DNA of 8,956 nucleotides, from IMG/VR virus record IMGVR_UViG_2751185961_000010. One strand, written 5' to 3'. This DNA is from a virus (lineage: Duplodnaviria > Heunggongvirae > Uroviricota > Caudoviricetes). A model generated the notes under the pieces. That model did no database searches and was not told where the DNA came from. It was given only the letters and a program-made list of their open reading frames with translations. The position numbers and the translations under genes are program-made. Shown here piece by piece: positions 5,243 to 5,955 of the stretch (position 1 is the stretch's first letter; every line of letters starts with the position of its first letter).

Positions 5243-5536
5243 ATGAAATCAAAAAATACTGGCTTAACTGCCAGTGGCAAAACTCAACCCGAATTTATGC
5301 GCGGGGATATTTACCGCGATAAGTACGGCGGCATCGTGATGATTATCAGCATGAGGGAACGGCGCATCACCTACCGCCGTGAAGGGTATGACTATGACTG
5401 CGTGATGCCTGTTTGTCAGTTCCGGCGTGATTTTTCCCTGGTGCAGGCCGTACCACGTCGTAGCCCAACCAGCAACAACAAAGCAAAGGCGCATGTTAAG
5501 GCCATGAAGAAGACGATCAGCAGAGGTAAGAAATGA
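5243..5536 (+). CDS. hypothetical small basic protein (97 aa)
   Basis: AGGAG 9 nt upstream of the ATG; stop overlaps the start of the next ORF (ATGA). Confidence 0.7.
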   Translation: MKSKNTGLTASGKTQPEFMRGDIYRDKYGGIVMIISMRERRITYRREGYDYDCVMPVCQFRRDFSLVQAVPRRSPTSNNKAKAHVKAMKKTISRGKK

Positions 5537-5955
5537 AAAGCGCACCGAACTTAAAAAAACAGCCGCGAGGGAAAAAACACGCCGATACGGAAGTGATTAT
5601 TTTCGCTGGCAGTGATGCGTGGGCGCACGCGAAACAGTGGCAGGAGCAGGAGGGACGACTTGCAGGTGATGATGTTCCGCCAGTCGTGCTTTCTGATGAA
5701 CAACTTAAGGATATTGGCAATCTGAAAATTGTGCCCGACGGGCGCAAATCAGCGCGTATATACAAGGCCGGACACCTCGATCAGATGATGGTCAAAGGCA
5801 TCGGTCAGAAGCTGGCAGCCGCAGGTATACAGGTATACAGGATGCTGATTACTACCCTGAAGGAATGCACCACAACGAGCGGCAGAACTGGCGTAACTAT
5901 CTGGATATTGAACGCAAAAACATTTCTGACGGGCTGGTTATTGAGCTGCCTGTAA
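5533..5955 (+). CDS. toprim-like (primase-remnant) protein, 140 aa; probably catalytically degenerate; may be the N-terminal part of a frameshifted alpha-like gene
   Basis: TEVIIFAGSDAWAHA and KIVPDGRKSARIY parallel the DnaG / P4-alpha TOPRIM motifs (hhhhEGYxD ... YDGDRAG) but with Glu->Ala and the second Asp->Arg. The last ~30 codons overlap the helicase ORF out of frame and look non-protein-like. Confidence 0.5.
   Translation: MKSAPNLKKQPRGKKHADTEVIIFAGSDAWAHAKQWQEQEGRLAGDDVPPVVLSDEQLKDIGNLKIVPDGRKSARIYKAGHLDQMMVKGIGQKLAAAGIQVYRMLITTLKECTTTSGRTGVTIWILNAKTFLTGWLLSCL

Follow-up and report, generated by a model that had tools for sequence, protein, structure and literature searches.

The 140-aa open reading frame on the + strand at 5533-5955 of the window (the whole 8,956-nt stretch of viral DNA analysed here) is the front piece of pri-rep, the replication-initiator gene of a Gram-negative PICI. 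The explanation we favor, with moderate confidence, is that the N-terminal module encoded by this gene is a non-catalytic, Toprim-derived 'pseudo-primase' domain carried on an SF3 initiator, and that the gene has been broken by a frameshift in this PICI copy. An earlier, sequence-only reading had taken the ORF for a Toprim remnant in which the catalytic Glu and Asp had been replaced. That description needs correction: what was taken for a Toprim remnant of 140 aa is a piece left by a frameshift in a decayed, IS1-flanked PICI, and its length carries no biology. The absence of acidic residues is a family trait, common to the functional initiator EcCICFT073 Pri-Rep, and not a loss in this island.

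The initiators of E. coli PICIs are hallmark genes annotated as DNA primase, yet their N-terminal module resembles a Toprim core without the catalytic residues. Decay by frameshift and IS1 insertion is ordinary, and inactive primase-like domains on helicases are already known. What is modestly new here is an uncatalogued, acid-less, Toprim-like module on annotated PICI 'primases', shuffled among four helicase classes.

The disrupted pri-rep gene and its island

The window holds the following features, with the strand in brackets where one was assigned.

1-98 (-): IS1 end in inverted orientation, directly next to the truncated integrase; its reverse complement is identical to 8724-8821
99-1149 (+): tyrosine integrase, its 5' end cut by IS1 (Pfam, relatives)
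1792-1995 (+): AlpA-family regulator/excisionase, a PICI hallmark (PF05930, E 2.4e-20)
2060-2575 and 2568-3305: two Rha-family (Phage_pRha) regulator/antirepressor genes, side by side with a slight overlap
3611-3889 and 3986-4165 (-): two small ORFs sharing the C-terminal motif KxFALExFLxKxPRRL
4286-4804: Ash-family ORF with a GTG start (PF10554, E 1.1e-8), a family also reported for EcCIMP1-like PICIs
5243-5536 (+): DUF4222 gene, its stop overlapping the pri-rep start (ATGA)
5533-5955 (+): 140-aa ORF, the 5' fragment of the disrupted PICI pri-rep; aa 1-100 native, aa 101-140 out of frame
5533-5832 (+): native part (aa 1-100) of the N-terminal Toprim-like module, with strand 1 (21-25), helix 29-43, strands 51-53 and 73-78, and helix 84-96
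5822-5837 (+): 8-bp tandem duplication, CAGGTATA followed directly by CAGGTATA, source of the frameshift
5838-7361 (+): remainder of pri-rep in the shifted frame, with linker, D5_N, SF3 helicase (DUF5906) and Pox_D5 (Pfam)
7362-7648: PICI-type replication origin directly 3' of rep, made up of iterons among AT-rich stretches
8095-8535 (+): island-encoded SSB with the acidic C-terminal tail DDIPF
8724-8956 (+): IS1 end that cuts off the island downstream of SSB; thousands of genomes have matching IS1 sequence

Both motifs that had been quoted in support of Toprim are indeed encoded by the ORF, TEVIIFAGSDAWAHA at aa 19-33 and KIVPDGRKSARIY at aa 65-77. The ATG of the ORF shares bases with the stop codon of DUF4222, the gene upstream, and the ORF itself overlaps, in a different frame, the 5' end of a 498-aa ORF at 5865-7361. 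When one copy of CAGGTATA is deleted in silico, the frame starting at 5533 and ORF 5865-7361 fuse into a single 606-aa frame. The repaired protein is collinear with the intact 606/607-aa proteins of E. coli JNEC-KY176 and O145:H28 RM12581, which are the closest E. coli relatives (JNEC-KY176 has 96% nucleotide identity to the window). The DNA of both aligns to the window except for exactly the 8 bases of the duplication, and in both a single unbroken CDS carries the name 'DNA primase family protein'. The short length that had been read as a property of the protein is thus an artefact of the duplication, and the comparison with intact relatives also tells against the earlier reading in another way, as their full-length proteins carry the same acid-less module.

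The duplication is probably a genuine mutation of this lineage. None of the listed E. coli genomes that match the junction, out of 40 matching genomes in all, carries it; they align over 252-253 nt for 260-261 nt of query and are thus 8 nt shorter. Among GTDB representative genomes, the junction has no exact match. An identical 140-aa ORF was called in Logan contig SRR3581386_333, which comes from an independent short-read assembly and is 100% identical to the window over 4784-8136, and the presence of the frameshifted allele in that assembly points to a real mutation. The frameshift is recent, since at protein level the N-terminal part does not differ from its counterpart in JNEC-KY176 (dN = 0). 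Programmed frameshifting was rejected as an explanation, because the change is a simple 8-bp tandem duplication that is missing from the listed E. coli junction matches.

The frameshift point is the exact start of strand 4 of the module. Strand 4 (101-105), a semi-conserved acidic position at 107 and helix 118-129 are all lost, and the N-terminal module is uncoupled from the helicase. The shifted part has two possible restart codons, ATG 5865 and ATG 6006 (a gene caller picked 6006), and a helicase-only product could be made from either.

The surroundings of the gene follow the Gram-negative PICI layout: int, alpA and pri-rep run rightward and unidirectionally, and an iteron origin follows. 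Eight exact TGTTCACC/GGTGAACA iterons lie at 7375-7596 in both orientations, along with degenerate copies, and none was found elsewhere in the window. This arrangement matches the ori of Gram-negative PICIs, in which iterons and AT-rich stretches come directly after pri-rep (PMC6092414). The window contains no packaging or capsid genes. The overlap between DUF4222 and pri-rep recurs in EcCICFT073 and JNEC-KY176 and is not seen in O145:H28 RM12581; the DUF4222 product may be a translationally coupled partner of pri-rep. Upstream, the first Rha-family copy (2060-2575) is weak and possibly degenerate, with an E value of 3.8e-5, below the Pfam cut-off. No convincing + strand gene was found at 3507-4280. 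The minus-strand ORFs at 3611-3889 and 3986-4165 have no Pfam match; in relatives, the annotation around 3611-4165 names a YlcI/YnfO family protein and Icd-like fragments.

Two inverted IS1 copies bracket 99-8723. On the left, the listed ORF 85-1149 begins at a TTG within the IS1 end, homology to relatives begins at position 100, and the Arm-DNA-bind_3 match of the integrase covers only profile positions 51-83 of 83; the integrases of relatives are 410-420 aa long. On the right, IS1 replaces a ProQ/FinO-PerC arm seen in relatives. Taken together, the sequence marks this island copy as probably defunct. The earlier suggestion that the island might be replication-defective probably holds in its outcome and fails in its cause, as the likely defect comes from the frameshift and the two IS1 insertions, not from missing acidic residues. 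In JNEC-KY176 the SSB gene (9490-9930 of its locus) is a pseudogene with an internal stop and pri-rep is intact, the reverse of the situation here, so copies of the island decay at different genes.

The intact protein and its N-terminal module

The C-terminal ~460 aa of the intact ~606-aa protein consist of a P4-alpha-type D5_N/SF3 helicase and an origin-binding domain. In BLASTP, aa 149-596 of the repaired protein align with aa 323-771 of P4 alpha at 50% identity (E 6e-161), and Pfam detects D5_N (7.8e-14), DUF5906 (6.9e-10) and Pox_D5 (1.5e-12). All features of a D5-type SF3 initiator are present: D5_N, an SF3 NTPase with a Walker A motif (GPGGSGKS) and a C-terminal Pox_D5. The NCBI model TIGR01613 (P4-family primase C-terminal) matches with 97.6 bits, under its cut-off of 108.7. 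On these similarities, the protein is placed in the D5_N/SF3 family and among the Pri-Rep proteins of Gram-negative PICIs. The idea that a primase is hidden in another part of the protein was rejected, since aa 149-596 align end to end with the helicase/origin-binding part of P4 alpha. The first 148 aa have no BLASTP similarity to the P4 alpha primase region, and hhalign of the module against the P4 alpha primase domain gives a probability of 0.3%, a weak negative given the shallow P4 alignment (at least 66% identity).

Toprim is a compact alpha/beta fold, a four-stranded parallel sheet with flanking helices. A Glu ends its strand 1 and a DxD motif follows its strand 3 (Aravind et al. 1998). 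To place the module against this fold we used the AlphaFold model of an 89%-identical homolog, with a pLDDT of 85 overall and >90 over residues 1-130. The model alternates beta and alpha elements (strand 21-25, helix 29-43, strand 51-53, helix 55-63, strand 73-78, helix 84-96, strand 101-105, helix 118-129), and the mapping of Toprim active-site positions onto it rests on the order of these elements.

In this model, strand 1 ends at A25-G26. Column 25 is A, V or I in every one of 21 diverse members, the Gly is invariant, and the conserved strand-1 Glu of Toprim is not present at the aligned position. Equating A25 with the Glu position is topologically reasonable, and to this extent the proposed alignment of motifs, with Ala standing in place of the invariant Glu before a conserved Gly, is borne out. 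The second motif fares less well. D69-G70-R71 sit in a loop ahead of the long hydrophobic core strand 73-78, which makes their proposed DxD register doubtful. The residues past that strand are K-A-G (in the family, Q/K/R/L/V, then A/F/S/C/L/M, then G/N). Column 71, the proposed second Asp, is acidic in none of the 21 members, and no DxD appears under either register. The linear spacing from A25 to D69 is 44 residues, similar to the spacing from E265 to D309 in E. coli DnaG, and by this spacing alone the proposed register may still hold.

Only two acidic positions of the module are conserved, E20 and position 107. E20 is near-invariant and sits where strand 1 begins, away from the active-site end of Toprim; position 107, after strand 4, is D or E in 81% of members. 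The latter lies within P-E-G, which recalls the P-D-G of DnaG. So small an acidic set is not enough to make a two-metal polymerase site. A zinc ribbon is likewise impossible, as the first 150 aa contain 0 Cys, and Zn_Ribbon_Prim has no match in the repaired protein (in P4 alpha it matches at E 1.9e-18). The statement that the protein lacks a zinc-binding region was correct.

The sequence-only reading had itself named a lack of significant Toprim similarity as an outcome that would speak against it, and at sequence level this is what we found. Neither the ORF nor the repaired N-terminus has a Toprim match in Pfam or NCBIfam at E<=10. Pfam searches of 21 diverse module members at the same threshold gave nothing relevant and no Toprim. 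When PDB sequences were searched with profiles from two alignments, no Toprim protein came up, only chance matches to Cas2, an ABC ATPase and AcrIF14 with E>0.6. As judged by these searches, the resemblance of the motifs to Toprim is no better than chance. Three defining features of the Toprim family were looked for and not found in the module, and its membership in that family is not demonstrable.

Only structure comparison supports a Toprim-like fold, all sequence and profile methods being negative. By fold, the module, with its alternating beta and alpha elements, lies nearest to the Toprim cores of the primases DnaG and T7 gp4. Twinkle, topoisomerases I/II/III, GyrB and E. coli DnaG are also among the top 60 matches, about 10 of them in all. 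Foldseek against the PDB gave nothing below E 0.1. Against the BFVD viral models it gave one significant match, A0A6J5LID1 (E 8.6e-4, TM 0.65 on target), and the sub-threshold matches were dominated by 'DnaG primase, TOPRIM domain', 'DnaG/twinkle TOPRIM' and 'primase-helicase'. A0A6J5LID1 is a free-standing, uncharacterized 112-aa protein of an uncultured Caudovirales phage, and the match indicates that the module fold also exists as a stand-alone phage protein. The fold of the module is probably related to Toprim, and from the model we infer descent from it. Alternatively, the module may be an unrelated small Rossmann- or flavodoxin-like domain, for instance one with an interaction or regulatory role in PICI initiators, and its resemblance to Toprim generic. 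We consider the unrelated domain unlikely, though it deserves serious attention.

In intact relatives the module comprises the N-terminal ~135 aa. Pfam and NCBIfam hold no model for it, PHROGs matches are only to families that already contain it (phrog_864, 'DNA primase', covers the module), and our literature search found no paper on the N-terminal module or on priming of Gram-negative PICIs. An exhaustive profile search of 1.84 billion (1.84e9) representative proteins recovered 125 clusters with the module, nearly all of them with the match at the extreme N-terminus of proteins of 500-740 aa. Its partners are four types of NTPase: D5_N/DUF5906/Pox_D5, DUF927, AAA_25 and VapE-like. These four fusion types agree with the observation of Fillol-Salom et al. 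(PMC6092414) that Pri-Rep comes in 'four allelic variants'. In the E. coli sequences NZ_CP027323.1 and NZ_CP054363.1, a module and linker with 96.6% nucleotide identity, matching window 5700-5960, are fused to a DUF927 protein. So similar a copy on a different NTPase points to recent shuffling, and the alignment suggests a recent recombination breakpoint just past the linker.

The module is also under purifying selection, with a dN/dS of 0.12-0.21 among intact relatives. Between this island and EcCICFT073, the dN of the module is 0.23, lower than the 0.54 of the helicase part. These results bear directly on the idea that a once-active Toprim primase decayed in this island, its Glu changed to Ala, its Asp to Arg and its length reduced to 140 aa. 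An Ala at the end of strand 1 before Gly, the missing zinc ribbon and the Toprim-like fold suggested by structure comparisons all suit that idea, but the same residues occur in 21 of 21 diverse members and in the functional EcCICFT073 Pri-Rep, selection maintains the module, no similarity to the P4 alpha primase domain remains despite 50% identity elsewhere in the protein, and the 140-aa length is due to the 8-bp duplication. We regard local decay as very improbable, and the words 'remnant' and 'lost primase activity' do not suit an island whose module shares its lack of acidic residues with every member compared. Because those residues are absent throughout, selection is purifying and the sequence is unrelated to the P4 alpha primase, the comparisons mark the module as a conserved, most likely non-catalytic domain that has not decayed.

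Priming and the possible role of the module

The evidence on function comes from EcCICFT073 Pri-Rep, the replication initiator of the E. coli CFT073 PICI (Fillol-Salom et al. 2018, PMC6092414). Its pri-rep and ori maintain a ts plasmid in E. coli DH5alpha without helper phage, deletion of rep or ori abolishes or strongly reduces this maintenance, and deletion of pri-rep lowers transfer of the island ~100-fold (PMC6092414). The replicon experiment addresses replicon function and is silent on who makes the primers (PMC6092414). That EcCICFT073 replicates with the same module and without a helper implies priming by the host. Priming by the host or a helper fits the published EcCICFT073 data, and by analogy the island studied here would likewise have drawn on host priming.

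Primase activity of the module is unlikely, given the Ala at the strand-1 Glu position and the lack of a zinc-binding region. One could argue that the module does have primase activity, by way of an unconventional active site, and that the 'DNA primase' annotation is right, since pri-rep and ori suffice for plasmid replication in E. coli (PMC6092414), databases label such proteins DNA primase, and a PHROG of that name (phrog_864) covers the module; yet there is no conserved acidic cluster for catalytic metals (E20 lies away from the active-site end), no zinc ribbon for template recognition (0 Cys), and the 'primase' names most likely derive from the helicase model TIGR01613 and not from the module, so that we find this argument hardly credible. 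PICI 'DNA primase' genes with the module are probably not primases.

We propose the following sequence of events for an intact copy. The C-terminal domain would bind the iterons of the origin directly downstream (7362-7648), and the SF3 helicase would then load itself and unwind the origin. Because the module lacks the catalytic set, primers would come from the host, most simply from DnaG. The module itself would be a Toprim-derived 'pseudo-primase' domain without catalysis, retained next to the helicase because it serves some other than an enzymatic purpose, and may act in helicase loading or ssDNA handling, or in docking DnaG or SSB. This accessory role is proposed by analogy with two known proteins. 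The N-terminal primase-like domain of metazoan Twinkle has neither a zinc finger nor primase catalytic residues, yet is kept on its helicase. The primase domain of T7 gp4 has a loading role (PMC9198812).

A bolder form of this proposal is that the module constitutes an undescribed, dead, Toprim-derived family, attached to four NTPase classes and acting as an adaptor of a self-loading helicase to host DnaG/SSB or to ssDNA. We put this forward tentatively, and rate it somewhat below an even chance. If the pseudo-primase explanation is true, the genes that serve as PICI markers under the name 'DNA primase' do not encode primases, Pri-Rep is misnamed in its 'Pri' part, and PICI replication relies on the host primase, which the satellites must borrow. 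The module would then be a candidate for the adaptor that connects the self-loading helicase of the satellite with the replisome of the host.

Comparison with known systems

The closest named system is EcCICFT073. Its Pri-Rep (WP_000761835.1) has 48% overall identity to the repaired protein and shares the D5_N/SF3/Pox_D5 architecture as well as the N-terminal module, in which TEVIIFAGSDAW, IVPEGRKS and YPDGMH are the corresponding segments. The neighbourhood is alike, with int, alpA, DUF4222 overlapping pri-rep, ori and SSB. The EcCICFT073 gene is intact (584 aa) and experimentally functional, whereas the copy in the window is frameshifted and its island is cut by IS1. The Pri/Rep proteins of SaPIs occupy the same functional slot, an initiator helicase with ori immediately downstream. 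SaPI primases differ in being AEP-type, often encoded by separate genes, and without a Toprim-like module. As cited in PMC7581432, the SaPI primase has a role in SaPI replication without being essential.

P4 alpha (NP_042036.1) is 50% identical over D5_N, the SF3 helicase and the C-terminal origin-binding domain, and its origin is likewise made of short iterons. By analogy, Pri-Rep would work as a self-loading initiator helicase of the P4-alpha/PICI kind. The N-terminal regions differ. P4 alpha has a 322-aa primase domain, with Zn_Ribbon_Prim at 30-66, Toprim_3 at 210-299, and E214 and D260/D262 invariant, whereas the protein described here has a 135-aa module that is unrelated in sequence and is without those residues.

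The DnaG-type Toprim cores (Aquifex, B. subtilis and E. coli DnaG; T7 gp4, 1NUI) have no detectable sequence similarity to the module. Compared with these primases, the module is without the Glu, the DxD, the zinc-binding domain and the N-terminal subdomain of the RNA-polymerase domain. The primase-like domain of Twinkle is clearly homologous to T7 gp4, whereas the module has no sequence homology to any primase. The two also differ in the motor that they accompany, as the helicase of Twinkle is of the DnaB/RecA type and the module described here is fused to SF3, DUF927, AAA_25 or VapE NTPases.
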